Notes: generated by a model not told the origin, from the letters alone. Positions 7,863 to 24,509 are shown, counted from the first letter of the stretch. The stretch: DNA of 38,821 nucleotides from Acidobacteriota bacterium (GCA_016189965.1 JACPRL010000183.1:1-38821), one strand, 5' to 3'. A program made the numbers and translations.

Positions 7863-7891
7863 ATTCTCCCCCCGCGCCCCCACCCTGTCAA
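7863..7891 (-). promoter_or_regulatory. sigma70-like promoter for the 7038..7787 gene
   Basis: The minus strand reads TTGACA-N17-GAGAAT, about 75 nt upstream of the ATG at 7787. Confidence 0.45.
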
Positions 7892-7940
7892 CACCAACGG
7901 GTCGCGGGTCACGAACCACGAGTCACGCTCTTATCCGCGT

Positions 7941-7992
7941 CTATCTGTGCCTGCCCGCCGTAGCCTTGGCGAAGGCGGGTGCATCTGTGGTT
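7941..7992 (+). repeat. CTGTG-family repeat copy split by a GC hairpin
   Basis: ctatctgtgc + hairpin cccgcc-gta-gcc-tt-ggc-gaa-ggcggg (7954..7979) + tgcatctgtggtt (7980..7992). The last part equals positions 18-30 of the 30-mer at 9658. Confidence 0.7.
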
Positions 7993-8014
7993 TCAATCAG
8001 TTAGAATCGCCGCC

Positions 8015-9187
8015 ATGCTCCGCTTCCACACCGCCGGCGAGTCGCACGGCCAATGCCTCACCGCACTCGTTTCCGGCCTCCCCCTCGGCGTCCCGGTCGA
8101 CCTCGTTTTCATCAACCGCGAACTCCGCCGCCGCCAGGCCGGCTACGGTCGCAGCACGCGGATGAAGCTCGAGCATGACCAAGTTGCCATCCTCTCTGGC
8201 GTCCGGCACGGGCAGACCATCGGCTCGCCCGTCACGCTTCAAATCGAAAACAAAGACTGGGCCAACTGGGAAGACACCCTGCCGGTCGAAGACAAGCCCG
8301 TCCCGCCGGAAAAGCAGCGCCCGCTCACCCAGCCCCGCCCCGGCCACGCCGACCTCGCCGGCGCGCTGAAGTTCAACCTCCACGACGCGCGCTACATCCT
8401 CGAGCGCGCCAGCGCGCGGGAAACCGCTGCCCGCGTCGCCGCCGGCGCCCTGGCCAAGCCCTTCCTCCGCGCCTTCGGCATCGAAGTCCTGAGCCACACG
8501 GTCGCCATCGGCGCCGTCCGCCTCGAGCGCGCAGCAGCCTGGGAGGAAATTGTCGGCGCCTGCCAGGACCCCGACGCTGAAATCCGCTGCGTCGATGCTG
8601 CCCGGGGCGCGGAGATGAAAAAGTTGATTGACCGCGCCATCGCTGACCGCGACTCTCTCGGCGGCGTCTTCGAAGTCGTCGCTCACAACGTCCCGCCCGG
8701 CCTCGGCTCTCACACCCACTGGGACGAGCGGCTCGACGCCCGCCTCGCTCAGGCCCTGATGTCCATCCCGGCGGTCAAAGCGGTCGAAATCGGCTCCGGC
8801 ATCTCGAACGCCTTCGCCTTCGGCTCCCAGGTGCACGACGAAATCCTCTACGACCCCGCCCGCCGCCGCTTCACCCGCCCCTCGAACCACGCCGGCGGCC
8901 TCGAAGGTGGAATGACCAACGCCGAAGACCTCGTCCTCCGCGGCTACCTCAAACCCATCTCCACCCTCCGCCGCCCCCTGCGCTCGGTTGACCTCGTCAC
9001 CAAAGAGCCGGTCAAGGCCGCCTATGAGCGTTCCGACGTCTGCGTCGTCCCCGCCGCCGGCGTCATCGGCGAAGCCATGGCCGCGCTAGAGCTCGCCGCC
9101 GCCTTCCGCGAAAAATTCGGTGGCGACACGCTCGAGGTAGCCCGCCGCATCTTCTCCGCCTACCTCACCCAACTCCAAAACTTTTGA
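8015..9187 (+). CDS. aroC: chorismate synthase
   Basis: MLRFHTAGESHGQCL... carries the chorismate synthase signature (GESHG). 390 aa. ORF 7979..9187 trimmed to the Met at 8015. Confidence 0.95.
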   Translation: MLRFHTAGESHGQCLTALVSGLPLGVPVDLVFINRELRRRQAGYGRSTRMKLEHDQVAILSGVRHGQTIGSPVTLQIENKDWANWEDTLPVEDKPVPPEKQRPLTQPRPGHADLAGALKFNLHDARYILERASARETAARVAAGALAKPFLRAFGIEVLSHTVAIGAVRLERAAAWEEIVGACQDPDAEIRCVDAARGAEMKKLIDRAIADRDSLGGVFEVVAHNVPPGLGSHTHWDERLDARLAQALMSIPAVKAVEIGSGISNAFAFGSQVHDEILYDPARRRFTRPSNHAGGLEGGMTNAEDLVLRGYLKPISTLRRPLRSVDLVTKEPVKAAYERSDVCVVPAAGVIGEAMAALELAAAFREKFGGDTLEVARRIFSAYLTQLQNF

Positions 9188-9217
9188 AACCACAGATACA
9201 CACAGATGCACACAGAT
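9188..9217 (-). repeat. CTGTG-family 30-mer, inverted copy (left arm of the GxxExxY cassette)
   Basis: AACCACAGATACACACAGATGCACACAGAT matches the reverse complement of 9658..9687 at 28/30 (hand count). Confidence 0.85.
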
Positions 9218-9595
9218 AAGGCAGAGCCGGATTACCCGGAGGCAGAGCTCACCGAGAAGATTCTTGCCGCCGCTTTCAAAGTGCAGAATGTCTTGGGTTG
9301 CGGCTTCTTGGAAAAAGTCGACGAGAACGCATTGGTCGTCGAACTGAGCCGGCAGCAGCTACGCACCCAGCAGCAGAAGCCTCTGCAGGTGAGATACGAA
9401 GGCGCGATTGTTGGCGAGTATACGGCTGACCTCGTGGTTGAGGATCGCGTGATCGTCGAGTGCAAAGCCGTCACGCAACTCGACCCCGTCCATGAAGCTC
9501 AACTGCTAAACTACCTGAAGGCAACGGGCATCCGTGTCGGCTTGCTGCTGAACTTCGGCCGTCCGAAGCTCCAGTACCGCCGCTTTGTAGCTTAG
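9206..9595 (+). CDS. GxxExxY protein (PD-(D/E)xK nuclease-fold family, PDDEXK_3-like)
   Basis: 129 aa. Contains GAIVGEYTADLVVEDRVIVECKA (GxxExxY followed by a D..E.K-type core) and LLNYLKATGIRVGLLLNF, as typical for the family. Confidence 0.85.
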   Translation: MHTDKAEPDYPEAELTEKILAAAFKVQNVLGCGFLEKVDENALVVELSRQQLRTQQQKPLQVRYEGAIVGEYTADLVVEDRVIVECKAVTQLDPVHEAQLLNYLKATGIRVGLLLNFGRPKLQYRRFVA

Positions 9596-9657
9596 GGCGA
9601 TATGCGCTTGCTGTTGGGGGCTCGTGCGTCGGACCCAGATGATTGGAGTCTGTCAAA

Positions 9658-9687
9658 ATCTGTGTGTATCTGTGTGCATCTGTGGTT
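9658..9687 (+). repeat. CTGTG-family 30-mer (three 10-bp units)
   Basis: ATCTGTGTGT ATCTGTGTGC ATCTGTGGTT. Identical 30/30 to 24443..24472. Ends 3 nt before the def ATG. Confidence 0.9.
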
Positions 9688-9690
9688 CCA

Positions 9691-10200
9691 ATGATTTATC
9701 CGATTGTTAAATACGGGGCGTCGGTGCTGGAACACAAGGCGGCGCCGGTGACCGCCTTCGACGCCAAGCTCGCCCGGCTCGTCGAAGACATGTTCGAGTC
9801 CATGTACGCCGCCCACGGCGTCGGCCTCGCCGCCCCCCAGATCGGTATCCCGCTTCAGCTCGCCGTCATTGACACGACCAGCGGCGCTGACCCCGCTGCC
9901 CGCCTCGTCCTCGCCAACCCGGAAATCCTCGCCACCGAAGGCAAGCAGAACGAAGAGGAAGGCTGCCTGAGCCTCCCCGGCTTCCACGCCGTCATCCGCC
10001 GCCCCGCCCGCGTCACCGTCCGCGCCCAGAATGTCTCCGGCAAGCCGTTCACCCGCACCGGCGAAGCCCTCCTCGCCCGCGCCTTCTGCCACGAGATTGA
10101 CCACCTCCACGGCCGCCTCTTCCTCGCGCATCTCTCCGCGCTGAAGCGCGACCTCATCCGCCGCAAAATCCGCAAACTCATCAAAGCCGGCGACTGGTGA
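9691..10200 (+). CDS. def: peptide deformylase
   Basis: Contains the GVGLAAPQIG, EGCLSLPG and HEIDHLHG motifs. 169 aa from the Met at 9691. Confidence 0.95.
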   Translation: MIYPIVKYGASVLEHKAAPVTAFDAKLARLVEDMFESMYAAHGVGLAAPQIGIPLQLAVIDTTSGADPAARLVLANPEILATEGKQNEEEGCLSLPGFHAVIRRPARVTVRAQNVSGKPFTRTGEALLARAFCHEIDHLHGRLFLAHLSALKRDLIRRKIRKLIKAGDW

Positions 10201-10292
10201 CACTTCAGTGTCACCCTGAGCGGAGTCCCGACAACCGTCGGGACGCAGTCGAAGGGGCCGCTTCCTCTGTGCTCTCTGTGCCCTCTGTGGTA
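10196..10292 (+). repeat. composite intergenic element: two 8-bp-stem hairpins + GTCACCCTGAGC module + CTCTGTG-type repeat
   Basis: First hairpin ggtgacac-ttca-gtgtcacc (10196..10215) overlaps the def stop. Second hairpin gtcccgac-aacc-gtcgggac (10225..10244). Then cctctgtgctctctgtgccctctgtgg (10264..10290). Same architecture as 24379..24472. Confidence 0.7.
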
Positions 10293-10303
10293 AATCAGTC
10301 CTG

Positions 10304-11266
10304 ATGAAACTGCTCTTTTGCGGCACGCCTGAGTTCGCTGTCCCGACACTCCGCCGGCTGCACGCGGAGACGTTTGACATTGCCGCTGTCGTCACCCAGC
10401 CCGACCGGCCCAAGGGCCGCGGCCTCGCCCCCGCCGCCCCACCCGTGAAGCTGGCAGCGCAGCAGCTCGGCCTGCCCGTCGAGCAACCCGACAAGTTCAA
10501 AGGCGAGCCCGGCCGCGCGCTGCTGGCCCGGCACCAGCCCGACGCTGTCGTCATCGTCGGCTACGGCCAACTCATCCCCGCCGACTTGCTCCGCCTCCCC
10601 CGCCACGGCTGGATCAACCTCCACGCCTCGCTGCTTCCCAAATACCGCGGCGCCGCCCCCGTCCAGTGGGCACTCATCAACGGCGAAACCGCCACGGGCG
10701 TCACCACCTTCCAGCTCGACGAAGGCCTCGACACCGGCCCCATCTTCCTCCAACGCGAAGTCCCCATCGCCGAAGACGACAACGCCCTCACGCTCAGCCA
10801 CCGCCTGGCCGAAGTCGGTGCCGAGTTGATGGTTGAAACCCTGCGCCGCCTCGCCGCCGGCCAGCTCACCCCAGAGCCGCAGGACCACTCCCGCGCCACC
10901 AAAGCCCCGCTGCTCAAGCGAGAGCACGGCCGCCTCAACTTCTCGCTTCCCGCCCGCGACATCTCGAACCGCATCCGCGGCCTCGTCCCCTGGCCCGGTG
11001 CCTTCACCTCCTTCCGCGGCACCCTGCTTCATATCTGGCACGCGAAGCCCGTCGGGCCGCCCGCCGGCGTCGTCCAACCACCTGCTCCCGGCACGCTCCT
11101 GGTCGAAAGGCACGCCCTCTACGTCGCCTGCGGCCCCGAAGCTTCGGGGAACACCTGGCTGCGCCTCGAAGAACTCCAGCCCGCCGGCCGCAAACGCCTC
11201 TCCGCCACCGACTTCATCAACGGCTTCCACGTCCGCACCGGCGAAAAGCTGGAGACACCGGCCTGA
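10304..11266 (+). CDS. fmt: methionyl-tRNA formyltransferase
   Basis: 320 aa. FCGTPEFAVPTL N-terminus and HASLLPKYRGAAPVQWALING motif. Classic def-fmt pairing. Confidence 0.95.
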   Translation: MKLLFCGTPEFAVPTLRRLHAETFDIAAVVTQPDRPKGRGLAPAAPPVKLAAQQLGLPVEQPDKFKGEPGRALLARHQPDAVVIVGYGQLIPADLLRLPRHGWINLHASLLPKYRGAAPVQWALINGETATGVTTFQLDEGLDTGPIFLQREVPIAEDDNALTLSHRLAEVGAELMVETLRRLAAGQLTPEPQDHSRATKAPLLKREHGRLNFSLPARDISNRIRGLVPWPGAFTSFRGTLLHIWHAKPVGPPAGVVQPPAPGTLLVERHALYVACGPEASGNTWLRLEELQPAGRKRLSATDFINGFHVRTGEKLETPA

Positions 11267-11288
11267 ACGAAGCCTAATCTGGGTTCAG

Positions 11289-11310
11289 CCCAGCGGCTCC
11301 TGCCGCTGGG
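11289..11310 (+). terminator. hairpin downstream of fmt (no U-tract)
   Basis: cccagcgg-ctcctg-ccgctggg, an 8-bp GC stem 23 nt after the fmt stop. Confidence 0.3.
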
Positions 11311-11325
11311 AACCGTGTGGGAGCG

Positions 11326-11353
11326 TTGACACGAACCGGCCATCTGCTAAAAT
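11326..11353 (+). promoter_or_regulatory. sigma70 promoter of the toxin-antitoxin operon
   Basis: TTGACA (11326-11331), N16, TAAAAT (11348-11353), with an extended -10 TGc. Confidence 0.65.
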
Positions 11354-11380
11354 TTGATTGATATCAATCAACATCAATCA
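11354..11380. promoter_or_regulatory. palindromic operator (probable antitoxin binding site)
   Basis: TTGATTGATATCAATCAA is a perfect 18-bp palindrome (11354..11371). An extra half-site ATCAATCA follows (11373..11380). It sits immediately after the -10 element. Confidence 0.6.
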
Positions 11381-11389
11381 GGAAGGACC

Positions 11390-11689
11390 ATGGTCAATCG
11401 CATCCCCCTTACGAAAGCCCGGGTCAACCTCGGGCAACTGGTGCGCCGCGTTCATGTCAACAAGGAGTACTTCATTCTGGAAAAGGACGGCATTCCAGTC
11501 GCCGGCCTGATGGACGCGGAAGAACTGGAGGACTACCTCGAGGTGCGCAACCCGAGCGTCCGAGAACACATCCGGGCCAGCCACGACGAGTATCTGGCCG
11601 GCAAGGCGCGCCCGGCGGAGGCTTTGCTGACCCGGACCAGGAAAAACAAGCGGCGTCGCTCCAGGGCTCGGCGACCTCGAAAGGCATGA
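11390..11689 (+). CDS. type II antitoxin, Phd/YefM family
   Basis: RBS AGGAAGGA. MVNRIPLTKARVNLGQLVRRV...YFILEKDGIPVAGLM. 4-nt ATGA overlap with the downstream toxin. Unusual Arg/Lys-rich C-terminal tail. Confidence 0.8.
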   Translation: MVNRIPLTKARVNLGQLVRRVHVNKEYFILEKDGIPVAGLMDAEELEDYLEVRNPSVREHIRASHDEYLAGKARPAEALLTRTRKNKRRRSRARRPRKA

Positions 11690-11976
11690 CGCTGCTTTTT
11701 CGCGTCCTGGCCACACCCCATTTTGACCACCTCTTCCGAAAACTCGGCAAACACCACCCAGATCTTCAAGGCATCTTCCGGGATGCACTCAGCACCCTGC
11801 AGACCGACCCGCACAACCGGACTCGCCGGCACGCTATCAAGAAACTCGAAGGGCTCAAGCCCGGCGAAGGGCAGTACCGGCTCCGCCTCGGGCGCTGGCG
11901 CTTTCGCTATGATATCGCCGGCCAGGACGTAGTTCTCCACTACTGCGGACTGCGCCGGGAAGAAACCTATCGCTAG
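11686..11976 (+). CDS. type II toxin, RelE/ParE family
   Basis: 96 aa. YRLRLGRWRFRYDIAGQDVVLHYCGLRREETY is the typical RelE/ParE C-terminal core. Translationally coupled to the antitoxin. Confidence 0.8.
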   Translation: MTLLFRVLATPHFDHLFRKLGKHHPDLQGIFRDALSTLQTDPHNRTRRHAIKKLEGLKPGEGQYRLRLGRWRFRYDIAGQDVVLHYCGLRREETYR

Positions 11977-11991
11977 GAGTTGGAGTAGTCC

Positions 11992-12780
11992 TTGATGCTC
12001 TTCGGTGCCGCCATCGCTTTGCTGCTCGGAGGGTTGGCCGTCTACGCCTTCCTCATCGAGCCCTATTGGCTCCACGCCACCTACCACCGCCTACCGGCCC
12101 CCGTCCGCGCGCCGCTGAAAATTGCCCTGCTCAGCGACCTGCACACGCTCGGCCTCGGCCGCCGCGAACGCAAACTCCTCCGCCTGCTCGAAGCCGAACA
12201 GCCCGACGCCATCCTCATCGCCGGCGACTCCCGTTCCACCTCCCGGCGCGCCACCTACGAATCCATCCGCGAGACGCTCTCCCACCTGCGCGCCCCGCTC
12301 GGCGTCTGGCTCGTGCGCGGTAACCACGACAAGGACGCCCGCCGCCTCGCCCAGGCGCTCGACGGCCTCGAAAGCGACGGCATCCACCTCCTCCTCAACC
12401 AGGGCTGCGCCCTGCGGCCCGACGTCTGGCTCGCCGGCCTTGACGACGTCCGCGGCGGCCGCCCCGACCCCGACCTCGCTCTCCGCGACGCCCCCGCCGG
12501 CGCCTGCCGCATCGCTCTCTTCCATTGCCCGGTAGGATTCGAGCCGCTCGCCGGCCGCGTCGAACTCGCTCTCGCCGCTCACACCCACGGCGGCCAGGTG
12601 CACCTGCCCTTCATCCGTCCCTTCTGGCTCCCGCGCGGCTGCGGCTCCTACCTCGAAGGTTGGTATGAGAAGAACGGCACGCCGATGTACGTCACCCGCG
12701 GCCTCGGCACCTCCGGCCTGGCGCTGCGCTTCCGCTGCCGCCCCGAAGTCGCTTTCCTCCTCCTCGAACCCTCCCACTGA
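11992..12780 (+). CDS. metallophosphoesterase (membrane-anchored, YkuE-like)
   Basis: N-terminal TM segment, then the LSDLHT, GDS, RGNHD and HTHGGQ motifs. Confidence 0.85.
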   Translation: MMLFGAAIALLLGGLAVYAFLIEPYWLHATYHRLPAPVRAPLKIALLSDLHTLGLGRRERKLLRLLEAEQPDAILIAGDSRSTSRRATYESIRETLSHLRAPLGVWLVRGNHDKDARRLAQALDGLESDGIHLLLNQGCALRPDVWLAGLDDVRGGRPDPDLALRDAPAGACRIALFHCPVGFEPLAGRVELALAAHTHGGQVHLPFIRPFWLPRGCGSYLEGWYEKNGTPMYVTRGLGTSGLALRFRCRPEVAFLLLEPSH

Positions 12781-12798
12781 CCTCTGCTCTTCCCTTCC

Positions 12799-12846
12799 TT
12801 GCCTCTTTGCCTCTTTGCCTCTTTGTTTCTTTGCCTCTTAGCCTCC
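12799..12846 (+). repeat. tandem 8-mer array (TTGCCTCT x6, two units degenerate)
   Basis: ttgcctct ttgcctct ttgcctct ttgtttct ttgcctct tagcctcc, read directly from the sequence. Confidence 0.85.
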
Positions 12847-12861
12847 TACCCCCTGTGCCTG

Positions 12862-12870
12862 TGCTACAAT
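12862..12870 (+). promoter_or_regulatory. extended -10 element (TGcTACAAT) upstream of rpe
   Basis: TG-n-TACAAT ends 9 nt before the rpe ATG. There is no Shine-Dalgarno sequence in between. Confidence 0.4.
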
Positions 12871-12879
12871 TCTTCGTTT

Positions 12880-13578
12880 ATGCGGGGAATCAAAAGCAAC
12901 GGCCCGGTGGAAATCGCCCCCTCCATCCTGGCCGCCGACTTCACCCGCCTCGGCGAGCAAATCGCCGAGCTTAAAGCCGCCGGCTGCCAGCTCCTCCACA
13001 TCGACGTCATGGACGGCCACTTCGTCCCCAATCTCACCATTGGCCTCCCCGTCGTCCGCTCGCTCCGCCGAGCCACCGACCTCGCCCTCGACTGCCACCT
13101 GATGATTTCCGAGCCCGACCGCTACGTCGAAGCCTTTGCCGAGGCCGGCGCCGACATGATTTCGGTTCATCAGGAGGCCGCCCCGCACCTCGACCGCACA
13201 CTCGCCGCCATCCGCGCTGCCGGCGCCCGCGCCGGCGTGGCGCTCAACCCCGCCACCCCTGTGGTGCTGCTCAGCGAGGTGCTCCCGCAGGTGGATTACG
13301 TGCTCGTGATGTCGGTCAACCCCGGCTTTGCCGGTCAGCAATTCCTCCCCGGCGCCCTGGCCAAGCTCCGCCAGTTGGCCGACTGGCGCGCCGACCGCCG
13401 TCTCCATTTTTGCCTTGAAGTGGACGGGGGAATTGGGGTAGAAACTATCGGGGAGGCAGTTCGAGCCGGAGCCGATCTCGTAGTGGTAGCCACATCCATT
13501 TTCCACGCGCCCAACCCCCGGCAGAGCTTCGAACAGTTGCGCCAACTGGCCTGGTCGGCCGTCGCCGAGAAAGTCTGA
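12880..13578 (+). CDS. rpe: ribulose-phosphate 3-epimerase
   Basis: Contains PSILAADF, HIDVMDGHFVPNLT and MSVNPGFAGQQF motifs. ORF trimmed to the Met at 12880. Confidence 0.95.
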   Translation: MRGIKSNGPVEIAPSILAADFTRLGEQIAELKAAGCQLLHIDVMDGHFVPNLTIGLPVVRSLRRATDLALDCHLMISEPDRYVEAFAEAGADMISVHQEAAPHLDRTLAAIRAAGARAGVALNPATPVVLLSEVLPQVDYVLVMSVNPGFAGQQFLPGALAKLRQLADWRADRRLHFCLEVDGGIGVETIGEAVRAGADLVVVATSIFHAPNPRQSFEQLRQLAWSAVAEKV

Positions 13579-13595
13579 ACGCTTTGCTTGCGGCA

Positions 13596-14819
13596 ATGAA
13601 GAAAAACCGCCGTCTGCTCGCCCTCGCCGGGGTCGTGTCGCTGGCCCTGACAGTGGCTGGCTGCCACCGCCACAAGCACGCCCCGCCCGACCTCTCCGCC
13701 TCGCAGGAGCCCGACAAGGTGCTCTTCGAACGCGCCACCGAAGACATCAAGAACAAGCGCTTCGATACCGCCCGCCTCACCCTTCAAACCCTCATCAATA
13801 CCTACCCCGACAGCGACTACCTGGCCGCGGCCAAGCTCGCCATCGCGGACTCCTACTACGAGGAGAGCACCTCGGCCTCCCTCAACCACGCCGAGGTCGA
13901 ATACAAGGACTTCATCACCTTCTTCCCCAACGCGCCCGAGGTCGCCTTCGCCCAGTACCGCGCCGCCATGTGCCATTACCGGCAGCTGGAAAAGGCCGAC
14001 CGCGACCGCACCCACGCCCGGCGCGCCGAAGAGGAGTTCCAGCGCCTGCTGGTCAACTACCCCGAAAGCGAATACGCCGCCGAGGGCGAGCAGCGCCTCA
14101 TCGCCGTGCAGGAAATTCTGGCCGAGGGTGAATTCCACGTCGGCCGCTTCTATTTCATCCGCGGCTCCTGGCGCGCCGCCGCCGCCCGCTTGGCTCCATT
14201 GGTCGAGCGCTATCCCAACTTCAGCAAGCGCGATGAGTCGCTCTGGATGCTCGGCCAGGCTTGGGAGAAACACATACGGTTCTTCTGGGAGCCGGACCCC
14301 GAGCGCGCCGCCTCCTACTATGCCCGCCTCATCCGCGAGCACCCGATGAGCGAGAACGTAGCCGACGCCAAGGACGCCCTGGCCCGGCTCGGCCAGCCCG
14401 TCCCGGAACCCGACCCCGTGCTGCTGGCCCGCGCCCAGAGCGTCGCCCCCGTCAACCTCCAGGACGAGGAGCGCCGTGGGCTGCTCGGCCGCCTCTTTGG
14501 CCTCTTCAGCAGCCACCCGGATGTATCCGCCGCCGCCGCTCGCCTCGGTCCTCCGCCCCTTGAGCCTCCCGAAGAAACCCCGCGCATTCCACCACCCCCG
14601 TTCCAGAAGGTGATGACCGCTGTGCACAGCGGGCGCGTCGAGATTAAGCAGGTAGAGAAAATGCCCGAGGGTGCTGCAGCCTCGCCTCAGGGCCAGCCGG
14701 CCGACCAGTCCCAGCAGCCCGCGCAAGCCCAGGGGGAAGACAAGGATCAGAAACAGACCGACAAAAAGGAGCCCGCCCGCAAGAAATCCTTCTGGCGCAA
14801 GCTCGTCCCTTTCTGGTAG
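13596..14819 (+). CDS. bamD: outer membrane protein assembly factor BamD-like lipoprotein with low-complexity C-terminal extension
   Basis: Signal peptide plus lipobox LTVAGC. TPR-like N-terminal region (FDTARLTLQTLINTYPDSDYLAAAKLAIADSYY...). Q/K/D-rich tail. Confidence 0.8.
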   Translation: MKKNRRLLALAGVVSLALTVAGCHRHKHAPPDLSASQEPDKVLFERATEDIKNKRFDTARLTLQTLINTYPDSDYLAAAKLAIADSYYEESTSASLNHAEVEYKDFITFFPNAPEVAFAQYRAAMCHYRQLEKADRDRTHARRAEEEFQRLLVNYPESEYAAEGEQRLIAVQEILAEGEFHVGRFYFIRGSWRAAAARLAPLVERYPNFSKRDESLWMLGQAWEKHIRFFWEPDPERAASYYARLIREHPMSENVADAKDALARLGQPVPEPDPVLLARAQSVAPVNLQDEERRGLLGRLFGLFSSHPDVSAAAARLGPPPLEPPEETPRIPPPPFQKVMTAVHSGRVEIKQVEKMPEGAAASPQGQPADQSQQPAQAQGEDKDQKQTDKKEPARKKSFWRKLVPFW

Positions 14820-14843
14820 CCCCCCCACCCTGGCGCATTCCGC

Positions 14844-14872
14844 TTGACACTCCGCTGCGCCCCGTTTAGCAT
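14844..14872 (+). promoter_or_regulatory. sigma70-like promoter for the response regulator gene
   Basis: TTGACA (14844-14849), N17, TAGCAT (14867-14872). G-rich RBS before the GTG at 14915. Confidence 0.5.
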
Positions 14873-14914
14873 CCCCTCACTGCGCCGAAGTAGGAGTCTA
14901 AGGGGGGAGACGGC

Positions 14915-16228: not shown

Positions 16229-16234
16229 CGTCGC

Positions 16235-17122: not shown

Positions 17123-17233
17123 ACCTTGCCTCACTGCAATCGCGGGGAGTGGTAGTCTCCCACATTCCATCCCCACTTTCCATTTCGGCGCAGGCTTGGC
17201 TTATACTGCGGTATTCCGTTGCGGGACTGAGAG

Positions 17234-20053
17234 ATGACCGGGCAGGACATTCCCAAAGCCTACAGCCCCGGCGCCATCGAGCGCCGCTGGGCCGAGTGGT
17301 GGGTCAACGAGCGCCTTTTCACCCCCGAGGTCGCCGCCCGCCACCGCCCGCCCGACCGCGGCACCTTCTCGCTCGCCATCCCGCCCCCCAACGTCACCGG
17401 CTCCCTCCATATGGGCCACATGCTCGAGCACACCCAGATTGACATCCTGATGCGCTGGCGGCGCATGCAGGGCTACCGCGTCCTCTGGCTCCCCGGCACC
17501 GACCACGCCAGCATCGCTGTGCACGTCCTGCTGGAACGGGAGTTGGCGGCGCAGGGCCTGACCCGCCAGCAGCTGGGCCGCGAAGAGTTTCTGCGGCGCG
17601 CCTGGCAATGGAAGGCCGAAAGCGGCGACACCATCAAGCAGCAAATGATCCGCCTGGGGGCGTCGGTCGACTGGGGCCGCGAATGTTTCACCATGGACAG
17701 CGACCGCTATCGGGCTGTCCTGGAAGCTTTCATCCGCCTCTACGACGAGAAACTCATCTACCGCGGCCGCTACCTCATCAACTGGTGCCCGCGCTGCCTG
17801 ACCGCTTTGAGCGACCTTGAGGTCGTGCACGAAGAGCGCGACGCCAAGCTCTACTTCCTCCGCTACCCGGTGCTCGGTACCGATCGCCACCTCACCGTCG
17901 CCACCACCCGGCCGGAAACCATGCTGGGCGACACCGCCGTCGCCGTCCACCCCGCCGACGACCGTTACCGCCAGTTCGTCGGCCGCAAGGCCCTCCTGCC
18001 CCTAATGAAGCGCGAGATTCCCATCCTGGCCGACGAAATCGTTGACCGCGAGTTCGGCACCGGCGCCGTCAAGGTCACCCCGGCGCACGACCCGAACGAC
18101 TTCGAGCTCGCCCGGCGCCACCACCTGCCGGAAGTGGACGTGATGGACGACGCCGCCCGCATGAATCAAAACGCCGGCCCCTACGCCGGCCTCGACCGCT
18201 ACGAAGCGCGCCAGCGCGTCGTCGCCGATCTCGAAAAGCAGGGCCTGCTGGAAAAAGTTGAACCCTACCGCCACGCCCTCGGCACCTGCCAGCGCTGCAA
18301 GACGCCGGTCGAGCCGCGCGTCTCCGTCCAGTGGTTCTGCCGCATGAAGGAGTTGGCCGCGCCGGCCATTGACGTCGTCCGCCGCGGCCTCATCCGCGTC
18401 CTGCCGGAAAACAACGTCAAGGTTTATCTCAACTGGATGGAGAACATCCGCGACTGGTGCATTTCCCGCCAGCTCTGGTGGGGCCACCGCATCCCGGTCT
18501 GGCACTGCGCCTGCGGCGGTATGACGCGCGTGCGCGACTCACGCGTGGCAGTCGTCAACGGTCATCCCCAGCCCGCCAGCCCGCCCGAGAAATGCGAGCA
18601 GTGCGGCAACAGCGCGTTGACGCAGGACCCCGACGTTCTTGACACCTGGTTCAGCTCCGCCCTCTGGCCTTTTTCCACCCTCGGCTGGCCCGACGACACG
18701 CCCGACCTGCGCGACTTCTACCCCACCACACTGATGATCAACGGCTTCGACATCCTCTTCTTCTGGGACGCGCGCATGATCATGGCCGGGCTCAAGTTCA
18801 TGCCGCGCGAAAAACTGGAAGAGCGAATTCCGTTCAAGACTCTCTACATCCACGCCCTCGTCCGCGACCCCGAGGGCCGGAAGATGTCAAAGACCCGCGG
18901 CAATGTCGTCGACCCGCTCGACCTCATCGAGGAGTACGGCACCGACGCCTGCCGCTTCACCCTCGCCCTCATGGCCGCGCCCGGCACCGACATCGCCCTC
19001 AGCCCCGACCGCCTCCGCAGCTACCGCGCCTTCGCCAATAAAATCTGGAACGCCGCCCGCTTCATTGCGCTCAACCTCCAGCGCGCCGAGCAGAACGGAA
19101 CACTCCCGGCCGATTTCGCCGCCCGCTTGCTCCGCCAGGGCCCGCCGGAGAACCGAACCTTCGACCCGCCCCCCGCCTGGGTTGACCGCTGGCTCGCTTC
19201 GCGCCTCCACCGCCTCAGCCTTACCGTCGGCGAAGCGCTCGACAACTTCCGCTTCCACGAAGCCGCCCACGAGCTCTACCACTTCTTCTGGCACGAGTTC
19301 TGCGACTGGTACCTCGAATGGGTCAAGCCCGTCATTGCCGCCGATCCTGCAAAGCGGGACGCCCCCGCGCCGGACGGACAGCGCGCCGCCTGGAGCTACC
19401 TCCTCACCCACTTCGAGTGGGCCTTGCGCCTCCTGCATCCCTTTATGCCCTTCATCACCGAAGAGCTCTGGCGGCGCCTCTACGACGCTGAGCATTCGCT
19501 CGCTCTCCAACACTTGCCTCGGGGCGACGCCCGGCGCTTCGACAGCCGGGCCGAAGAAGAGATGGCGCTTGTCCAGGAGGCCATCGTCGCCCTGCGCAAC
19601 ATTCGCGCCGAGATGCGCCTCGACGCCCGCCGCCGCGTCCCCGGCGAACTGGCCACCCACGAACCCGCGGTCTTCGACCTCTTGGAAGCTCATCGCCAGT
19701 CCATCCTCCGCCTGGCGAACCTCTCGGAGCTGAGGCTCTCTCGCGATTCGCTGGCGGCCGAGGGCGGCGTCCTGCGCCACGCCGCCCGCTTCGACGCCCG
19801 CATTCCCTTCTCGGAGGCCGACCTCGCTGCCGAACTCAAACGGTTGCGCAAGGAAAGAGAAAAGCTGGAGAAAGAGCTCAGCGGCATGCGCACCCGCCTG
19901 GCCGACCGCGACTTCCGCGCCAAAGCCCCCGAAGACGTCGTCCGCGGGCTCGAACAGCGCCAGGCGGAGTACAATACCCAGTACGAAAAAGTCACCCGCT
20001 TGCTCGAAACGCTGGAGAACCGCCTCTCATCGGGCGGGGCACCTGCCCGATAA
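17234..20053 (+). CDS. valS: valine--tRNA ligase
   Basis: 939 aa. HIGH-type motif PPPNVTGSLHMGH, KMSKS motif KMSKTRGN, and a C-terminal coiled coil. Confidence 0.97.
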   Translation: MTGQDIPKAYSPGAIERRWAEWWVNERLFTPEVAARHRPPDRGTFSLAIPPPNVTGSLHMGHMLEHTQIDILMRWRRMQGYRVLWLPGTDHASIAVHVLLERELAAQGLTRQQLGREEFLRRAWQWKAESGDTIKQQMIRLGASVDWGRECFTMDSDRYRAVLEAFIRLYDEKLIYRGRYLINWCPRCLTALSDLEVVHEERDAKLYFLRYPVLGTDRHLTVATTRPETMLGDTAVAVHPADDRYRQFVGRKALLPLMKREIPILADEIVDREFGTGAVKVTPAHDPNDFELARRHHLPEVDVMDDAARMNQNAGPYAGLDRYEARQRVVADLEKQGLLEKVEPYRHALGTCQRCKTPVEPRVSVQWFCRMKELAAPAIDVVRRGLIRVLPENNVKVYLNWMENIRDWCISRQLWWGHRIPVWHCACGGMTRVRDSRVAVVNGHPQPASPPEKCEQCGNSALTQDPDVLDTWFSSALWPFSTLGWPDDTPDLRDFYPTTLMINGFDILFFWDARMIMAGLKFMPREKLEERIPFKTLYIHALVRDPEGRKMSKTRGNVVDPLDLIEEYGTDACRFTLALMAAPGTDIALSPDRLRSYRAFANKIWNAARFIALNLQRAEQNGTLPADFAARLLRQGPPENRTFDPPPAWVDRWLASRLHRLSLTVGEALDNFRFHEAAHELYHFFWHEFCDWYLEWVKPVIAADPAKRDAPAPDGQRAAWSYLLTHFEWALRLLHPFMPFITEELWRRLYDAEHSLALQHLPRGDARRFDSRAEEEMALVQEAIVALRNIRAEMRLDARRRVPGELATHEPAVFDLLEAHRQSILRLANLSELRLSRDSLAAEGGVLRHAARFDARIPFSEADLAAELKRLRKEREKLEKELSGMRTRLADRDFRAKAPEDVVRGLEQRQAEYNTQYEKVTRLLETLENRLSSGGAPAR

Positions 20054-20071
20054 GAGACGAAACCGAAGGAG

Positions 20072-20974
20072 ATGAGCGCAGCCTCCGACAAACCCGCCGC
20101 CCTCGCCGCCCACCAGCAGCTTGACTGGTGCTCGAAGGAAATCACCGCTCTGCTCGAGCAAGCCCTAGCCGAAGATGTCGGCTCCGGTGACTTGACCTCC
20201 GACGCCGTCTTTCCCGAACCGACCGAAGCCGTCGGCCGCTTCCTCGCTCGGCAGGTGCTCGTCGTCGCCGGCCTCCCCTTGGTCGAGCAGCTCTTCGAGT
20301 TGCTCGACCCCAGCACCCGCTTCCAGCCGCTGGTCGAAGAAGGCACGCTGGTCGGCCGCAGCCTGCTGGCTGAAGTGCGCGGCGACGCGCGCGCTCTCCT
20401 GCGCGGCGAGCGCACTGCCCTGAACCTCCTCCAGCGGCTCTGCGGCATCGCCACCTTGACCCGCCGCTTCGTCCACCGCCTGGAAGGCACACGCACCCGA
20501 CTGCTCGATACCCGCAAGACCACCCCGGGGCTGCGCCAGCTGGAGCGCTACGCCGTGCGCGTCGGCGGCGGCTCGAACCACCGCTTCGGCCTCTACGATG
20601 CCGTGCTCATCAAGGAGAACCACGCCCAGCTCACCGGCGGCGTCGGCGAAGCCGTCCGCCGCGCCCGGGAGAAGTACGGCCGGCAGCAGAGCATCGAGGC
20701 CGAGGTGCGCGATGAAATCGAAGTCCGCCAGGCGCTCGACGCCGGCGCCGACATCCTCCTGCTCGACAATATGAGCCCGGAGCAGATCCGCGACTGCCTC
20801 GCCATCATCCAGCGCCGCGCCCGCGTCGAGGTTTCGGGCGGCATCACGCTGGAAAACCTGCGCGAGTACGCCGAGCTCGGCGTCGACGCCATCTCCGTCG
20901 GCGCCCTCACCCACTCGGCCGCGGCAGCCGACATCAGCTTTGATGTTCGGCCCGCCGCGGAACCGGACTCATAG
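20072..20974 (+). CDS. nadC: nicotinate-nucleotide diphosphorylase (carboxylating)
   Basis: RBS AAGGAG. Contains LLDTRKTTPGLR, DAVLIKENH and ILLDNM motifs. Confidence 0.93.
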   Translation: MSAASDKPAALAAHQQLDWCSKEITALLEQALAEDVGSGDLTSDAVFPEPTEAVGRFLARQVLVVAGLPLVEQLFELLDPSTRFQPLVEEGTLVGRSLLAEVRGDARALLRGERTALNLLQRLCGIATLTRRFVHRLEGTRTRLLDTRKTTPGLRQLERYAVRVGGGSNHRFGLYDAVLIKENHAQLTGGVGEAVRRAREKYGRQQSIEAEVRDEIEVRQALDAGADILLLDNMSPEQIRDCLAIIQRRARVEVSGGITLENLREYAELGVDAISVGALTHSAAAADISFDVRPAAEPDS

Positions 20975-21007
20975 CCGGACTCATTTTCGGATTTCGCTTT
21001 CGAGTTC

Positions 21008-22018
21008 ATGATGCCCAAGCGCCGGCCGCCCCTGGCTTCGACCGACCGCCGCGTCGACAAGCTGCTCGGCTTGCTCATCGAGCATCCCATGGTGGTGCTG
21101 AGCGGCGCCAAGATCGCCCGCCAGGTCGGCGTCAGCCGCTCCGCCGTTTGGCATTGGGTGGAAAAGCTCCGCGCCCTGGGCGTCCGAATCAAAGGCCACC
21201 CCAAGACCGGCTACCAGCTCGAACGCGTCCCGGACATCCTCGTACCGCAACTCCTGCGCCTGCGCCTCGAGGGCACTGCCTTCGCCCGCCGCATCCACCA
21301 CTTTTTCAAGATTCACTCCACGAACGACGTTACTCTCGAGCTGGCCGCCGCCGGCGAGCCTCACGGAGCGCTCGTCCTGGCCGAGGAGCAGACCGCCGGC
21401 CGCGGCCGCCTGGGCCGCGCCTGGTACTCCGAAAAAACGACCGGCATCTACCTGTCCGTCCTCCTGCGGCCGCAACTCGCCCCGCAGCAGGCCCCGCTGC
21501 TGACGCTCCTGGCCGGGTTGGCCGTCCGCGACGCCGCGGTCGAAGTCACCGGGCTCGCCGTGGATCTGCGCTGGCCGAACGACCTGCTGGTGGGCGGGAA
21601 GAAATTCTGCGGCATCCTCACTGAGATGCAGGCCGAAGCCGATCGCATCCGTCACGTGGTGGTGGGCATCGGCGTCAACGTCAACCACAGCCGGATTCCG
21701 TCGGAGCTGGAAGCCATCGCCACCTCGCTCCGTCTGGCCGGCGGCCGTGCCTTCTCGCGGCTCGAAATCCTCGTCCGCTTGCTGCATGCGCTCGACCACC
21801 ACTACAATCAGCTCTTGCGCGAGGGCGCCGCCCCACTGATTGCCCGCTTCAGCGAAGTCTCGAGCTTCGCCCGCGGCAAACGGGTTCGCGTCGCGATGCC
21901 GAGCGAGGAAATCAGCGGCGTGACCGCCGGGCTCGACTCCACCGGCTGCCTGCTCGTCCGCCGCGACGCGGACGGTGAGACCGTGCCGGTCCTGGCCGGC
22001 GACGTCACCGAGGCTTGA
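21008..22018 (+). CDS. birA: bifunctional biotin--[acetyl-CoA-carboxylase] ligase / biotin operon repressor
   Basis: N-terminal wHTH (SGAKIARQVGVSRSAVWHWVEKLRALGV). Ligase motif QTAGRGRLGRAW. Confidence 0.93.
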   Translation: MMPKRRPPLASTDRRVDKLLGLLIEHPMVVLSGAKIARQVGVSRSAVWHWVEKLRALGVRIKGHPKTGYQLERVPDILVPQLLRLRLEGTAFARRIHHFFKIHSTNDVTLELAAAGEPHGALVLAEEQTAGRGRLGRAWYSEKTTGIYLSVLLRPQLAPQQAPLLTLLAGLAVRDAAVEVTGLAVDLRWPNDLLVGGKKFCGILTEMQAEADRIRHVVVGIGVNVNHSRIPSELEAIATSLRLAGGRAFSRLEILVRLLHALDHHYNQLLREGAAPLIARFSEVSSFARGKRVRVAMPSEEISGVTAGLDSTGCLLVRRDADGETVPVLAGDVTEA

Positions 22019-22033
22019 ATTAAGATCGATACC

Positions 22034-22888
22034 ATGACGTGGCTCGAAGTTGCTTTCGCTGCTCTGGTGGTTCTGGCGCTGGCCGCTGGCTGGTATAAGT
22101 ATTCGATCAGCACCGGCGCTGTACCCAAGGTGCTTGAGTTTTACCTCTGGCTCACACCCATCCTGACCTTTACGGCGCTCAGGCTGTTACACGCTCGCGC
22201 CGGACTCCAGGGGCTTGTCCCCATAGCTGTCGTTCACTTGGCAATCGTCGCCTGGGCGTTGTGGATTGTTCACCCTTCAACCTGCAGGGGTGTCACCCCT
22301 TGGCTGGACGGGGTTCTTCTTGTCGTTGGGGCAGCGGTCGTCTGGCTGGGCGCCATCACCTTCGCGGGAATGGAACTTCAGGGAATTGCAGCGCATCGTG
22401 GGGACCACCTGTTTACTGTTGGCGGCTTCCTGGTTGGCGCGCTCCTCAGCCTGGCGGGATTTATGGGGCTCAGCGCTCACTTACGCGAACGTGGCGAAAT
22501 CCTCCTGTCGCAGCTTGGGCTCTTAGCTCTGATAATCGGGACTGTCTGCTGGATTTTGCATCTTGCATTCCGCGCCACCGTCATGCTGGCGGCAGCGCAG
22601 GAATCTGCGGCGCCCACTTGGTACCCGCCGCTCCGGCTGTGGGCGGGGGCGATGTACGCCGCTTACATGGTCCTCGCTTATCTCTCCATCGCTTTCTACG
22701 GCGCAGCCATGCAGAAGACAGGATTGGCAGGGAAGGGTTGGGGGCGGACGTTTGTCGCTTTTGGATTGATTGCAGCAACGGGATTTGTGGCGCAGGGATG
22801 GTGGGACGTGCCTCTCGCGGTTCAGTTCATGCCCTACGCTATGGGCATGATTCTGCTTCGACGGGCGATGCTTCGCGCCAGTAGTTGA
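22034..22888 (+). CDS. polytopic membrane protein, unknown function
   Basis: 284 aa with about 8 hydrophobic segments. Visibly lower GC than the flanks. No motif recognised. Confidence 0.65.
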   Translation: MTWLEVAFAALVVLALAAGWYKYSISTGAVPKVLEFYLWLTPILTFTALRLLHARAGLQGLVPIAVVHLAIVAWALWIVHPSTCRGVTPWLDGVLLVVGAAVVWLGAITFAGMELQGIAAHRGDHLFTVGGFLVGALLSLAGFMGLSAHLRERGEILLSQLGLLALIIGTVCWILHLAFRATVMLAAAQESAAPTWYPPLRLWAGAMYAAYMVLAYLSIAFYGAAMQKTGLAGKGWGRTFVAFGLIAATGFVAQGWWDVPLAVQFMPYAMGMILLRRAMLRASS

Positions 22889-22974
22889 TCGGGCAGTCAT
22901 AAGGAGGCCTTCCATGAACCCGCAGGAGCAAGTTACCTCAGCGGATCGTCTGTTCACCCCACGGGTCTTTCACG

Positions 22975-23283
22975 GTGGTGAGTTCCCTTTTTTTCCTGGC
23001 TGCTATTTGCATACATCATGCCTTCAATCCCGCGACTCTACTCCGGGATGTAGTTATCTACCCCGTCGCTCTGCTCGTTCCTGTTGCTCTCTGGAAGAAT
23101 CGCCGTTGGCTCTACGTTGTGGCTGTGATCGTGATTGCGATTCCGTCGGTCGCTTTTCTGCACCTCTCCACCCTCGGTAGACCGGCGGAGCTGAAGCCAT
23201 TTCTCAACCACCTTTTTCTTCTGTTAGCTGGCACCTCTGCGATCCTTGTAGGCATCAGCGCATTTGTGAAGAAGCGGGTTTGA
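22975..23283 (+). CDS. small membrane protein (3-4 TM). The true start may be the ATG at 22914 via a frameshift in a T7 run.
   Basis: 102-aa hydrophobic ORF from the GTG at 22975, without an SD. The ATG at 22914 has a perfect AAGGAGG-N6 RBS but is in another frame. The frames would fuse if the T7 run at 22988..22994 were T6. Confidence 0.55.
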   Translation: MVSSLFFLAAICIHHAFNPATLLRDVVIYPVALLVPVALWKNRRWLYVVAVIVIAIPSVAFLHLSTLGRPAELKPFLNHLFLLLAGTSAILVGISAFVKKRV

Positions 23284-23340
23284 GCACGATGACCCTACCG
23301 GAGGCTTTGCTCAAGGACGACAACTGGTTTCCGCTTGTGA

Positions 23341-23380
23341 GACCGTTGCGCCTTTTGGCGGTGGTCGCATTTATTTTTTT
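23341..23380 (+). terminator. possible intrinsic terminator
   Basis: Imperfect stem gaccgttgcgcc/ggcggtggtc followed by ttattttttt. Alternatively this lies inside a 45-aa small ORF (23289..23426). Confidence 0.3.
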
Positions 23381-23486
23381 GCGCGCGACGCCGACGGGTC
23401 CCGACCAAAGCGCTGATGAACATTGAATTTGAAGACTGATGGAGTCTCGACGGGTCAACCCTCTCGCCATGCTTGCCCTGAGCGTA

Positions 23487-23510
23487 GTGTATCTGTGTGC
23501 ATCTGTGGTT
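23487..23510 (+). repeat. CTGTG-family repeat copy (positions 7-30 of the 30-mer)
   Basis: gtgtatctgtgtgcatctgtggtt, 24/24 identical to the corresponding part of 9658..9687. Ends 15 nt before the coaX ATG. Confidence 0.85.
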
Positions 23511-23525
23511 TCATAAATAGCCTCT

Positions 23526-24365
23526 ATGCTGCTGGTCATCAACGTCAACAACACCAACACGCTGCTCGGGGTCTATGAAGGCGAGCGCCTGCGGGCTCAC
23601 TGGCGCCTGATGACCGTCCACCAGCAAACCGTGGACGGCTTCGGCATCCAGGCGCGCAACCTGCTCCAACTCGCCGGCCTCGACGCCGGCCGGATTGACG
23701 GCGTCATCGTCAGCTCCGTCGTCCCGCCGCTCGACCGCACGGTCGCCGAGATGGTGCGCCGCTACTTCAAGCTCGAGCCGCTCTTCGTCGGCCCGGGCAT
23801 CAAGACGGGCATCCGCATCCGCTACGACAACCCGCAGGAGGTCGGCGCCGACCGCATCGCCAACGCCGTGGCTGCTTTCGCCAAGTACGGCGGGCCGATT
23901 GTGGCGGTGGACTTCGGCACCGCCATCACCTTCGACGCCATCTCCGCCGAGGGCGACTACCTGGGCGGCATCATCTGCCCGGGCATTGGCATCGCCTCCG
24001 ACGCCCTCTTCGAGCGCACCGCGCGCCTGCCCCGCGTCTCCTTCGCCCGGCCGGAGAAGCTCATCGGCACCCACACCGTGGGCTCCATCCAGTCCGGCCT
24101 CCACTACGGCTTTCTCGCTCTGGTGGACGGCCTGCTCGACCGCCTGAAGGAAGAGATTGGCCCCAAGACCCGCGTCATCGCCACCGGCGGCGGCGCCGGC
24201 TTGCTCGCCGACGCTTCCCGCCACATCGAGCTGGTTGACGAATTCCTCACCCTCGACGGCCTCCGCCTCCTCTACGAACGCAACCTGCCTGCGAAGGAGA
24301 AGCGCGAACCGCCGCCCGCCAAGGCCGCCTCCGCTGCTCGCAAGAACCCAAAGCGCCGCCGCTGA
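23526..24365 (+). CDS. coaX: type III pantothenate kinase
   Basis: Contains LLVINVNNTNT, GADRIANAVAA and VDFGTAITFD motifs. Basic C-terminal tail. Confidence 0.93.
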   Translation: MLLVINVNNTNTLLGVYEGERLRAHWRLMTVHQQTVDGFGIQARNLLQLAGLDAGRIDGVIVSSVVPPLDRTVAEMVRRYFKLEPLFVGPGIKTGIRIRYDNPQEVGADRIANAVAAFAKYGGPIVAVDFGTAITFDAISAEGDYLGGIICPGIGIASDALFERTARLPRVSFARPEKLIGTHTVGSIQSGLHYGFLALVDGLLDRLKEEIGPKTRVIATGGGAGLLADASRHIELVDEFLTLDGLRLLYERNLPAKEKREPPPAKAASAARKNPKRRR

Positions 24366-24378
24366 TCCCCATCCCTCT

Positions 24379-24472
24379 GTCATTCCGCCTTTCTTTGTCA
24401 TTCTGAGCCCCGAAGCTTCGGGGCGAAGAATCCCATCGAGAAATCTGTGTGTATCTGTGTGCATCTGTGGTT
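24379..24472 (+). repeat. composite intergenic element: GTCATTCTGAGC hairpin module + CTGTG 30-mer
   Basis: gtcattctgagccccgaagcttcggggcgaagaatcc contains the 18-nt palindrome 24407..24424 with an extended stem. It is followed by the 30-mer at 24443..24472. Confidence 0.8.
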
Positions 24473-24509
24473 ACATATCTTCCTACTCGGCTGTGCGGGG
24501 GCAGTTCCC

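Follow-up and report, generated by a model that had tools for sequence, protein, structure and literature searches.

Tandem decamer arrays at gene junctions of an Acidobacteriota genome as probable arms of a GxxExxY nuclease-fold cassette

Short TG-rich arrays of tandem 10-bp words stand close beside genes in a 38,821-nucleotide contig of an Acidobacteriota bacterium (GCA_016189965.1, JACPRL010000183.1:1-38821), the whole of which is called the window here. The arrays are very probably the arms of a small cassette carrying a GxxExxY (PF13366) gene, found in the window between aroC and def, and of gene-less remnants of that cassette. An initial annotation had placed them just upstream of housekeeping gene starts, in the orientation of those genes, and had proposed a phased protein-binding array, a promoter/UP-like module, or an insertion preference for the 5' ends of genes.

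The window is contig C144 of a metagenome-assembled genome (MAG; G000; 1.57 Mb, 194 contigs, 59% complete, 66% G+C), whose relatives are named Candidatus Acidiferrales/Terriglobia (Acidobacteriota). Two relatives, G001 and G002 (the latter 94% complete, in 30 contigs), are congeners, and the genus was thus compared in three members. Gene identities in the window were taken from NCBIfam profiles; the gene set of the MAG (1,476 genes, 84% coding) came from our own simple codon-usage caller. The head of an array is the end written ...CTGTGGTT(TCA), the GGTT(TCA) side, and the tail is the opposite end.

The aroC-def cassette and its nuclease-fold gene

The cassette and its two neighboring genes are arranged as follows.

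8015-9187, plus strand: aroC, chorismate synthase (NCBIfam, 412 bits)
9188-9217, minus strand: cassette left arm, plus-strand decamers AACCACAGAT ACACACAGAT GCACACAGAT, head toward aroC
9206-9595, plus strand: gene of the GxxExxY protein (PF13366/TIGR04256), 129 amino acids (TIGR04256 profile)
9658-9690, plus strand: cassette right arm, ATCTGTGTGT ATCTGTGTGC ATCTGTGGTT followed by CCA (decamers at 9658-9687)
9691-10200, plus strand: def, peptide deformylase, downstream of the cassette (NCBIfam)

The arms form an inverted pair (28/30 positions matching) that brackets the GxxExxY gene. The left arm lies 0 nt from the aroC stop, whose TGA (9185-9187) is at the same time the TGA of the head motif TGAAACC, a junction found again in relatives, and it holds the ATG of the nuclease gene (9206); the head of the right arm (9687) is 3 nt ahead of the def ATG (9691). 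The initial annotation had listed the forward copies correctly and had overlooked this reverse copy at 9188-9217, abutting the aroC stop.

With one mismatch allowed, the decamer ATCTGTGTGT had 8 matches in the window (0.68 expected). Tandem Repeats Finder called arrays of period 10 at 9191-9218, 9658-9684, 23487-23507, and 24443-24469 and of period 9 at 10264-10289. Simple TG-rich units and a fragmented MAG are what chance low complexity or an assembly artifact would give; that explanation is nonetheless practically negligible, given that 0/100 shuffles reached 8 matches, that the reversed pattern gave 1 match in 41 genomes (versus >70 real matches), and that copies are kept at orthologous sites of independently assembled genomes.

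The open reading frame (ORF) at 9206-9595 scored 147.1 bits against TIGR04256 (curated cutoff, 35), and residues D75, E85, K87, Q99, and Y103 were invariant across 37 aligned homologues. Top Foldseek matches of an AlphaFold2 model (predicted local distance difference test score, 92.6) were lambda exonuclease, LHK-Exo, Cas4 SSO0001, MGME1, and AdnAB nuclease domains; a sequence search of the PDB with the nuclease returned noise only (E > 0.2). The protein is thus predicted from its model to be a small PD-(D/E)XK nuclease of the RecB/Cas4/lambda-exonuclease-like branch, with a D..ExK..QxxxY signature. A 2012 survey of the superfamily gives PF13366 as a family of unknown function with "multiple transfers" (PMC3424549).

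Eighty GxxExxY homologues (49 to 68% identity) were fetched, from Acidobacteriota, Verrucomicrobiota, Chloroflexota, Desulfobacterota, Nitrospirota, Planctomycetota, Ignavibacteria, Saprospiraceae, Burkholderiales, Neisseriaceae, and Spirochaetota, among others. Approximately 50 of the 80 were flanked by inverted arms of three tandem ATCYGYG-type words (left, ..CCAC[AG]GAT-NNACAC[AG]GAT..; right, ATC[CT]G[TC]G..GG(C/TT)), with inverted-repeat scores of 15 to 34 (shuffle maximum, ~10 to 13). The left arm often provides the ATG of the nuclease gene, giving MHTD.. N termini. Among the 49 cassettes with strong arms, an upstream ORF ended within -15 to +8 nt of the outer end of the left arm in 26, an ORF started ≤45 nt after the right arm in 35, and a reverse-strand ORF ended at the right arm in 8.

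The MAG holds a second GxxExxY gene (G000 C59:7320-7780, locus L107), 45% identical to that of the window, between inverted arms built on a period-8 CTCTGTG word (TAGCCACAAAGGCACAGAGACACAGAGAG ... CTCTCTGTGCCTCTGTGTCTCTGTGGCC), a flavor with ~50 copies in the MAG. At G000 C46:6100-6600, a four-helix-bundle gene of TIGR02436, the family named for the ORF of 23S rRNA intervening sequences, has inverted arrays of yet a further word on its two sides, reaching from a TGA to an ATG (left, TGA-GTGGCAAGTGGCAAGTGACAAGCGACAAGTGACCAG; right, CTTGTCGCTTGTCGCTGGTCACTAGGCACTAGCC-ATG), a junction-filling architecture like that of the GxxExxY cassette.

We propose that the arrays are the ~30-bp terminal arms of small palindromic junction elements. 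Each arm consists of three tandem 10-bp words with the core ATCYGYG, ending in CTGTGGTT-TCA, and the complete form, represented in the window by 9188-9687, is a promoterless GxxExxY gene between two inverted arms, from which solo arrays and gene-less hairpins would derive. This anatomy is directly shown, as are the outward heads, the association with the nuclease gene across phyla, the differences between genomes at single sites, and the conservation of arms above that of coding flanks. Since the same ATCYGYG words flank GxxExxY genes across phyla, the phased words are probably recognition sites of the GxxExxY nuclease. By analogy with the repeat-enzyme pairs REP/RAYT and NTS/Ssn, treated below, the nuclease may copy, maintain, or move the arms. 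This mechanism, in which the enzyme handles the arms through its words, is tentative, at even odds or slightly below; for the combined statement, cassette arms together with nuclease words, we put the probability at roughly 0.7.

A phased protein-binding array is accordingly plausible only in another sense than first proposed, as probable nuclease sites. The 10-bp period, which had been equated with one helical turn, is typical, being found in 24/31 cross-phylum arms; it is 9 in 6/31 and 8 in a sister flavor, and these periods of 8 to 9 weaken helical phasing as a key property.

Array geometry across the genome and the promoter readings

The remaining copies in the window, with the hairpin module that splits one of them, are listed below.

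4508-4521, plus strand: head-only copy, CATCTGCGGTT TCA (read directly)
7932-7949, plus strand: first two units, TTATCCGCGT CTATCTGTG, of the split right-arm array that precedes aroC (read directly)
7950-7981, plus strand: hairpin module CCTGCCCGCC...GGCGGGTG between unit 2 and the terminal unit (read directly)
7982-7995, plus strand: terminal unit CATCTGTGGTT with TCA (head; ends at 7992 without TCA), 19 nt before the aroC ATG at 8015
10264-10293, plus strand: solo right-arm array of another flavor, CCTCTGTGC TCTCTGTGC CCTCTGTGG TAA, period 9
23491-23513, plus strand: solo right arm of two units, ATCTGTGTGC ATCTGTGGTT TCA, ending 12 nt ahead of the coaX ATG (23526)
24443-24475, plus strand: solo three-unit right arm, ATCTGTGTGT ATCTGTGTGC ATCTGTGGTT ACA

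Direct reading of the sequence bore out the copy positions and start distances first given for aroC, def, fmt, coaX, and the ORF at 24510. The fmt-proximal copy (10 nt before the fmt ATG at 10304) has the CTCTGTG word flavor and is similar to the arms, of period 8, around the second GxxExxY gene; the GGTT head of the last copy ends at 24472, 37 nt before a GTG start at 24510 that is kept in relatives. The copy at 4508-4518 had been set apart as an exception and is none: its head is turned toward the end of a gene-tail fragment on the minus strand, ~11 nt off, with the former stop at ~4531-4533.

Five forward window copies end 3 to 37 nt before starts, and this, with 10 bp as the commonest period and a coaX-upstream copy shared by all three genus members where no Shine-Dalgarno (SD)-like leader is present, is what speaks for a phased regulator-binding or promoter/UP-like module serving downstream housekeeping genes. 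The genome-wide geometry is different. In the ~32 to 39 array copies of the MAG, heads lay a median of 11.5 nt from a gene and tails 142.5 nt, and the head was nearer to the gene than the tail in 23/26 copies (P = 9e-5). None of the copies tallied in the MAG lay inside coding sequence. Fifteen of the 25 heads ≤40 nt from a gene end faced a stop and 10 faced a start, those before starts being sense and those after stops antisense. Assigned to the nearest gene boundary, 11 sense and 2 antisense copies fell at starts, and 17, all of them antisense, at stops; when copies were counted separately in 60-nt windows, sense:antisense was 12:3 before starts and 1:12 after stops. At least six copies on the stop side had the stop codon overlapping the head or within 0 to 1 nt of it (TGA|AACC, TAGgAACC, TAACC).

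Position and orientation are thus nonrandom, as the initial annotation had held from the window, and the start-side bias that it described is real; it is only half of a mirror-symmetric rule, the stop side being antisense. Start specificity itself fell in the genome-wide tally that the initial annotation had named as able to refute it, in which copies downstream of genes proved at least as frequent (15 to 17 copies at stops versus 10 to 11 at starts), and the supposed preference for 5' ends holds as a gene-flush position that extends to junctions, on stop and start sides both. In the cassette model, each element fills a short stop-to-start spacer with both arm heads outward; the right arm then reads sense before a start and the left arm antisense after a stop, and the start-side bias arises because the arms point outward from an element filling the spacer between two genes.

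Four inverted pairs were found in the MAG, one with a nuclease gene (that of the window) and three as gene-less hairpins that fill precisely the interval between a stop codon and the following start. Elements were found within co-directional gene runs, and arms also between convergent and divergent genes. The heads-out rule is followed by the TTTGTG/TTCGTG flavor, less cleanly by CTCTGTG, and broken by CTCTGCG; GGTCGCT and CTTGTCG copies were too few to judge. The TTTGTG/TTCGTG flavor (~58 copies in G000) is stop-skewed, with 32 copies antisense after stops and 7 sense before starts.

Arrays also shape gene calls. ORFs starting inside arrays (7979.., 9643.., 24447..) are long-ORF artifacts, as had been claimed. 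At G000 C75:7512-7543, C17:397-428, C161:1468-1489, and C175:3113-3134, the TGA of the head is out of frame, and the upstream ORF runs through the antisense array to end at its tail (GATAA/GATAG), which adds tails such as ..KPQMHTDEHR to predicted proteins.

The arrays do not constitute a promoter or UP module specific to start codons. A plus-strand scan for sigma-70 consensus sites (7700-10400 and 23200-24600) found no site overlapping an array and no -35 or extended -10 partner, a terminator consensus scan gave nothing overlapping the arrays, and the arrays are TG-rich rather than A/T tracts of the UP-element kind. The restriction to housekeeping genes did not survive the wider survey either: array-adjacent genes are a functional mixture (2-hydroxyacid dehydrogenase, TldD, PrmC, NusB, EamA, EutN, DUF72). 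Together with the excess of copies after stops, the periods of 8 to 9 in sister flavors, and the identity of the arrays as arms of a cassette present in many phyla, this makes the regulatory module very improbable. Nor is a missing Shine-Dalgarno sequence a special trait of array-adjacent genes, as GGAG/GAGG is present at no more than 38% of the genes here. DnaA boxes (TGTGNATAA), LexA boxes, integration host factor (IHF) sites, Chi/KOPS, and Rho rut sites were set aside by eye from established knowledge, as partially matching, replication-polar, or lacking the heads-out geometry.

An accidental outward promoter is another matter: the A/T-rich flank of the head (GGTTTCA-TAxxxT) would act in some copies as a -10 box close to the ATG and give short-leader or leaderless downstream transcripts, as insertion sequence (IS) and Correia ends sometimes do. 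TAGAAT precedes the ATG of aroC by 7 nt and the C141 start by 9 nt, TATTCT precedes the C36 start by 6 nt, and several relatives show GGTTT-CATAAT/CATAGT/TATATT-N5-ATG at the starts of coaX and the 2-hydroxyacid dehydrogenase gene, the distance from head to ATG being conserved at 12 nt. TANNNT at 5 to 8 nt before the start was found in 3/25 array-adjacent genes (background, 3.6%), a marginal enrichment that is not significant (P = 0.057), and many heads have no such box (for example, at def, C135, and C175). As the consensus scans also lacked -35 or extended -10 partners, we regard this explanation as improbable. The A/T-rich stretches beside heads in the window are TAGAAT at 8003-8008 (7 nt before the aroC ATG), TAAATA at 23514-23519 (6 nt before the coaX ATG), and a -10-like TACATATCTT at 24473-24484, after the head ending at 24472.

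Junction history, arm conservation, and folding

Orthologous junctions were compared among relatives. At aroC-def, a GxxExxY gene is present in four genera (MAG, G004, G006, and G008), gene-less inverted pairs in G002 and G003, the left arm alone in G009, with the def ATG directly after it, and a left stub with a different palindromic array in G010. The series of full cassette, empty pair, and single arm suggests how gene-less pairs and solo arms could originate in place. The solo arm upstream of coaX occupies the same site in all three genus members and is absent in the six other genera compared, G003, G005, and G006 having SD-like leaders instead; downstream of coaX, G001 carries an ATCCGTG-flavored array followed by different sequence, and G002 a decayed trace only.

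At the junction after the 2-hydroxyacid dehydrogenase gene, G002 reads TGA-agg-[83-nt gene-less hairpin]-tcatagggggtaatc-ATG, other modules have been acquired in G001, G004, and G010, and the MAG, G007, G008, and G013 have spacers of 4 to 12 nt with an SD sequence; the hairpin was therefore gained in the G002 lineage. At least one gene-less hairpin is thus a lineage-specific gain into an 8-nt stop-SD-start spacer. The junction before the same gene is empty in G001 and G007 (6-nt spacers) and elsewhere carries pairs, solo right arms, or head remnants, with the head-to-ATG distance kept at 12 nt. Downstream of an empty junction, a quinone-oxidoreductase-like gene (G000 C15:~1660-1668) has an in-frame TGA (MKTIVVTRYGAPDVME*RDRAEP...) where G002 has Leu, for which loss of function (a pseudogene), a sequencing error, and recoding are all conceivable.

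Arm conservation was measured on the hairpin between two EutN-like genes, MAG versus G002 (identical positions).

Left arm: 30/30
Right arm: 27/30
Loop: 18/39
Upstream coding flank: 121/145
Downstream coding flank: 144/166

The arms are thus 95% identical (57/60), the coding flanks 83 to 87%, and the loop 46%. The solo arm on C83 is likewise identical to its G002 orthologue at ~31/33 positions, next to a scrambled spacer. Sequence constraint or homogenization thus acts on the arms, with no obvious need for a resident nuclease. Array copy number, however, is highest where the matching nuclease is present: the MAG has 24 CTGTG-flavor matches and 1 CCGTG match, two to three times as many as any relative although it is 59% complete.

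If the elements are co-transcribed with their operons, paired arms would form a long stem in the transcript that brings the upstream stop beside the downstream start. The three gene-less hairpins of the MAG fold at -41, -37.6, and -55.4 kcal/mol (z, -5.5 to -8), and the arms of the full cassette (9188-9217/9658-9687) pair in both minimum-energy and centroid RNA folds, with a predicted stem that encloses the aroC UGA and ends beside the def AUG. A lone arm, which has no internal palindrome, folds at 0 kcal/mol and so does not exceed its shuffled controls.

Such stems could be host-selected RNA structures, that is, intercistronic stem-loops serving as RNase III processing sites, mRNA stabilizers, insulators, or stop-to-start placement devices, with the nuclease gene as an occasional passenger of the loop. 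The stability and placement of the stems, the stronger conservation of arms than of coding flanks, their persistence in congeners lacking the nuclease gene, the position of elements within co-directional gene runs, and the precedent of ORF-bearing intervening sequences in 23S rRNA are all in line with this. It fails for the solo arms, which are most of the copies and equally conserved, because a single arm does not fold; what is conserved is sequence identity, not pairing through compensatory change, and the words travel with the nuclease gene across phyla, which a host-specific role does not predict. Arms also lie between convergent and divergent genes, where both would not be in one transcript, and Rfam 15 gave 0 matches in the whole window at the gathering threshold. 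We consider host-selected RNA structure rather unlikely.

Several observations nonetheless weigh against the cassette and nuclease-word model. No clear target-site duplication is seen when the filled and empty sites are compared (TGA-agg-[element]-tcataggggg... versus TGA-gaggagcc-ATG). No GxxExxY gene was found in G001 or G002 (E ≤ 1e-5), and these genomes carry 17 and 13 exact arrays, respectively, with intact arms, G002 having even gained a hairpin; persistence, and perhaps spread, is therefore not obviously dependent on a resident nuclease. Arms more conserved than their coding flanks could reflect a host-level function rather than selfish maintenance. Finally, array counts are approximate, and contig-end copies lost, because the gene calls are our own and the MAG is incomplete and fragmented.

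These points lend some weight to a reading in which the arrays are a junction signal under selection of their own and not mere debris of a selfish cassette, because the arms surpass the adjoining coding DNA in conservation between species, beside a scrambled loop, and are kept, and at least once were gained, in congeners without GxxExxY genes. A host factor, or the nuclease acting in trans, would then read the phased ATCYGYG words at cistron borders, with transcript processing, insulation, or translational coupling as possible roles; we judge both the signal and such a reader unlikely.

Known systems and further arrays

One of the two nearest analogues of the cassette is formed by repetitive extragenic palindromes (REPs), their inverted doublets (REPINs), and REP-associated tyrosine transposases (RAYTs), together termed REPtrons: one small enzyme gene is bracketed by an inverted short repeat, the repeat is dispersed in many intergenic gene-less copies as singlets and inverted doublets, and there are long persistence at orthologous sites and lineage-specific flavors. 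Unlike RAYT, an HUH/Y1 IS200/IS605-like transposase, the enzyme here belongs to TIGR04256, with a PD-(D/E)XK RecB/Cas4-like fold predicted; unlike the GTAG-headed imperfect palindrome of REP, the arm consists of three tandem 8- to 10-bp words that fold at 0 kcal/mol; and unlike REP/REPIN, the arrays lie flush against stop and start codons. In the other, the NTS/Ssn system, a small site-specific nuclease gene lies amid copies of the repeat that Ssn recognizes, many copies surround genes, and the Ssn family is spread across bacteria (PMC11893778). The cassette shares with it a small nuclease-fold gene flanked by a multicopy repeat near genes in many bacteria and differs in enzyme fold (PD-(D/E)XK rather than the GIY-YIG of Ssn; PMC11893778), in words, and in arm architecture. 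With its different fold, and with arms built of tandem words and not as palindromes, the cassette belongs to neither system.

Correia, ERIC, RUP, and BOX elements are short intergenic inverted-repeat elements, co-transcribed as processable hairpins and occasionally carrying outward promoters. Terminal inverted repeats (the four MAG pairs), intergenic position, and hairpin form are common to the cassette, Correia elements, and miniature inverted-repeat transposable elements (MITEs). In contrast to these, there is no TA or other target duplication at the filled/empty site, the arms are tandem word arrays, and there is no DDE transposase parent, the full-length form carrying only a 129-aa nuclease-fold gene. 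In the 23S rRNA intervening sequences of Leptospira and Coxiella, inverted flanks pair into a long stem whose loop holds a small ORF. The cassette likewise has an ORF within a stem loop, a predicted long closing stem, and presumed entry into a transcribed region without breakage; it lies, however, between protein genes, its ORF encodes a GxxExxY protein rather than a four-helix-bundle protein, and its stem comes from predicted folds. The ends of Tn7 and Mu carry several phased transposase-binding sites, comparable to the directly repeated, putatively binding words within each inverted end here; unlike Tn7 and Mu, the cassette has no transposase and no target duplication and is far smaller (~0.1 to 0.5 kb).

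A literature search on GxxExxY and PF13366/PDDEXK_3 gave incidental mentions only, none tying the family to a repeat, and a search on intervening sequence protein with intergenic inverted repeats found nothing; the cassette and its arms thus seem undescribed in print. To the picture of the cassette, the present analysis adds a quantified heads-out geometry, an in situ decay series, a polarized filled/empty junction, and the finding that arms are better conserved than coding DNA in congeners without the nuclease gene. PF13366/GxxExxY is a very large family, for which the arm link offers a testable substrate, as NTS does for Ssn and REP for RAYT. For annotation, the arrays account for spurious N-terminal extensions and C-terminal read-through tails (MHTD.. 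and ..TDEHR peptides) and for the repetitive look of many Acidobacteriota intergenic spacers. The heads-out rule, the decay series, and the filled/empty junction bear on how operon junctions gain and lose small palindromic modules, and the conservation of arms in nuclease-less genomes raises the question of whether their upkeep is due to the enzyme, gene conversion, or the host.

The public assemblies gave no record of the def protein in an exact-match look-up. The split-array architecture of 7932-7992 recurs on MAG contigs C8, C83, C135, C17, and C140. The inserted hairpin begins CCTGCC(C)..., ends ...GG(G)TT, and sits before the terminal CATCTGTGGTT; inserts were located at window 7950-7981 and at G000 C8:~3965-3996, C83:~3866-3912, C135:~2168-2214, C17:3225-, and C140:29-. 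In at least five array copies the insert lies at the same exact position, right after the ATCTGTG of unit 2, with no target duplication visible at hairpin inserts inside arrays. This looks like site-specific nesting of one repeat family within another.

A pyrimidine-rich period-8 array, TTGCCTCT (window 12787-12847, ~6 copies, sense), lies between a stop at 12780 and a gene start near 12880 and may be a further flavor of junction array. Modules of the form GTCAYYCTGAGC...hairpin...GAAG(R)ATC flank the arrays of fmt and the 24510 ORF at their tails (window 10197-10255 and 24391-24432), and a GTCAYYCTGAGC...GAAG(R)ATC module fills the orthologous junction of G001 after the 2-hydroxyacid dehydrogenase gene.

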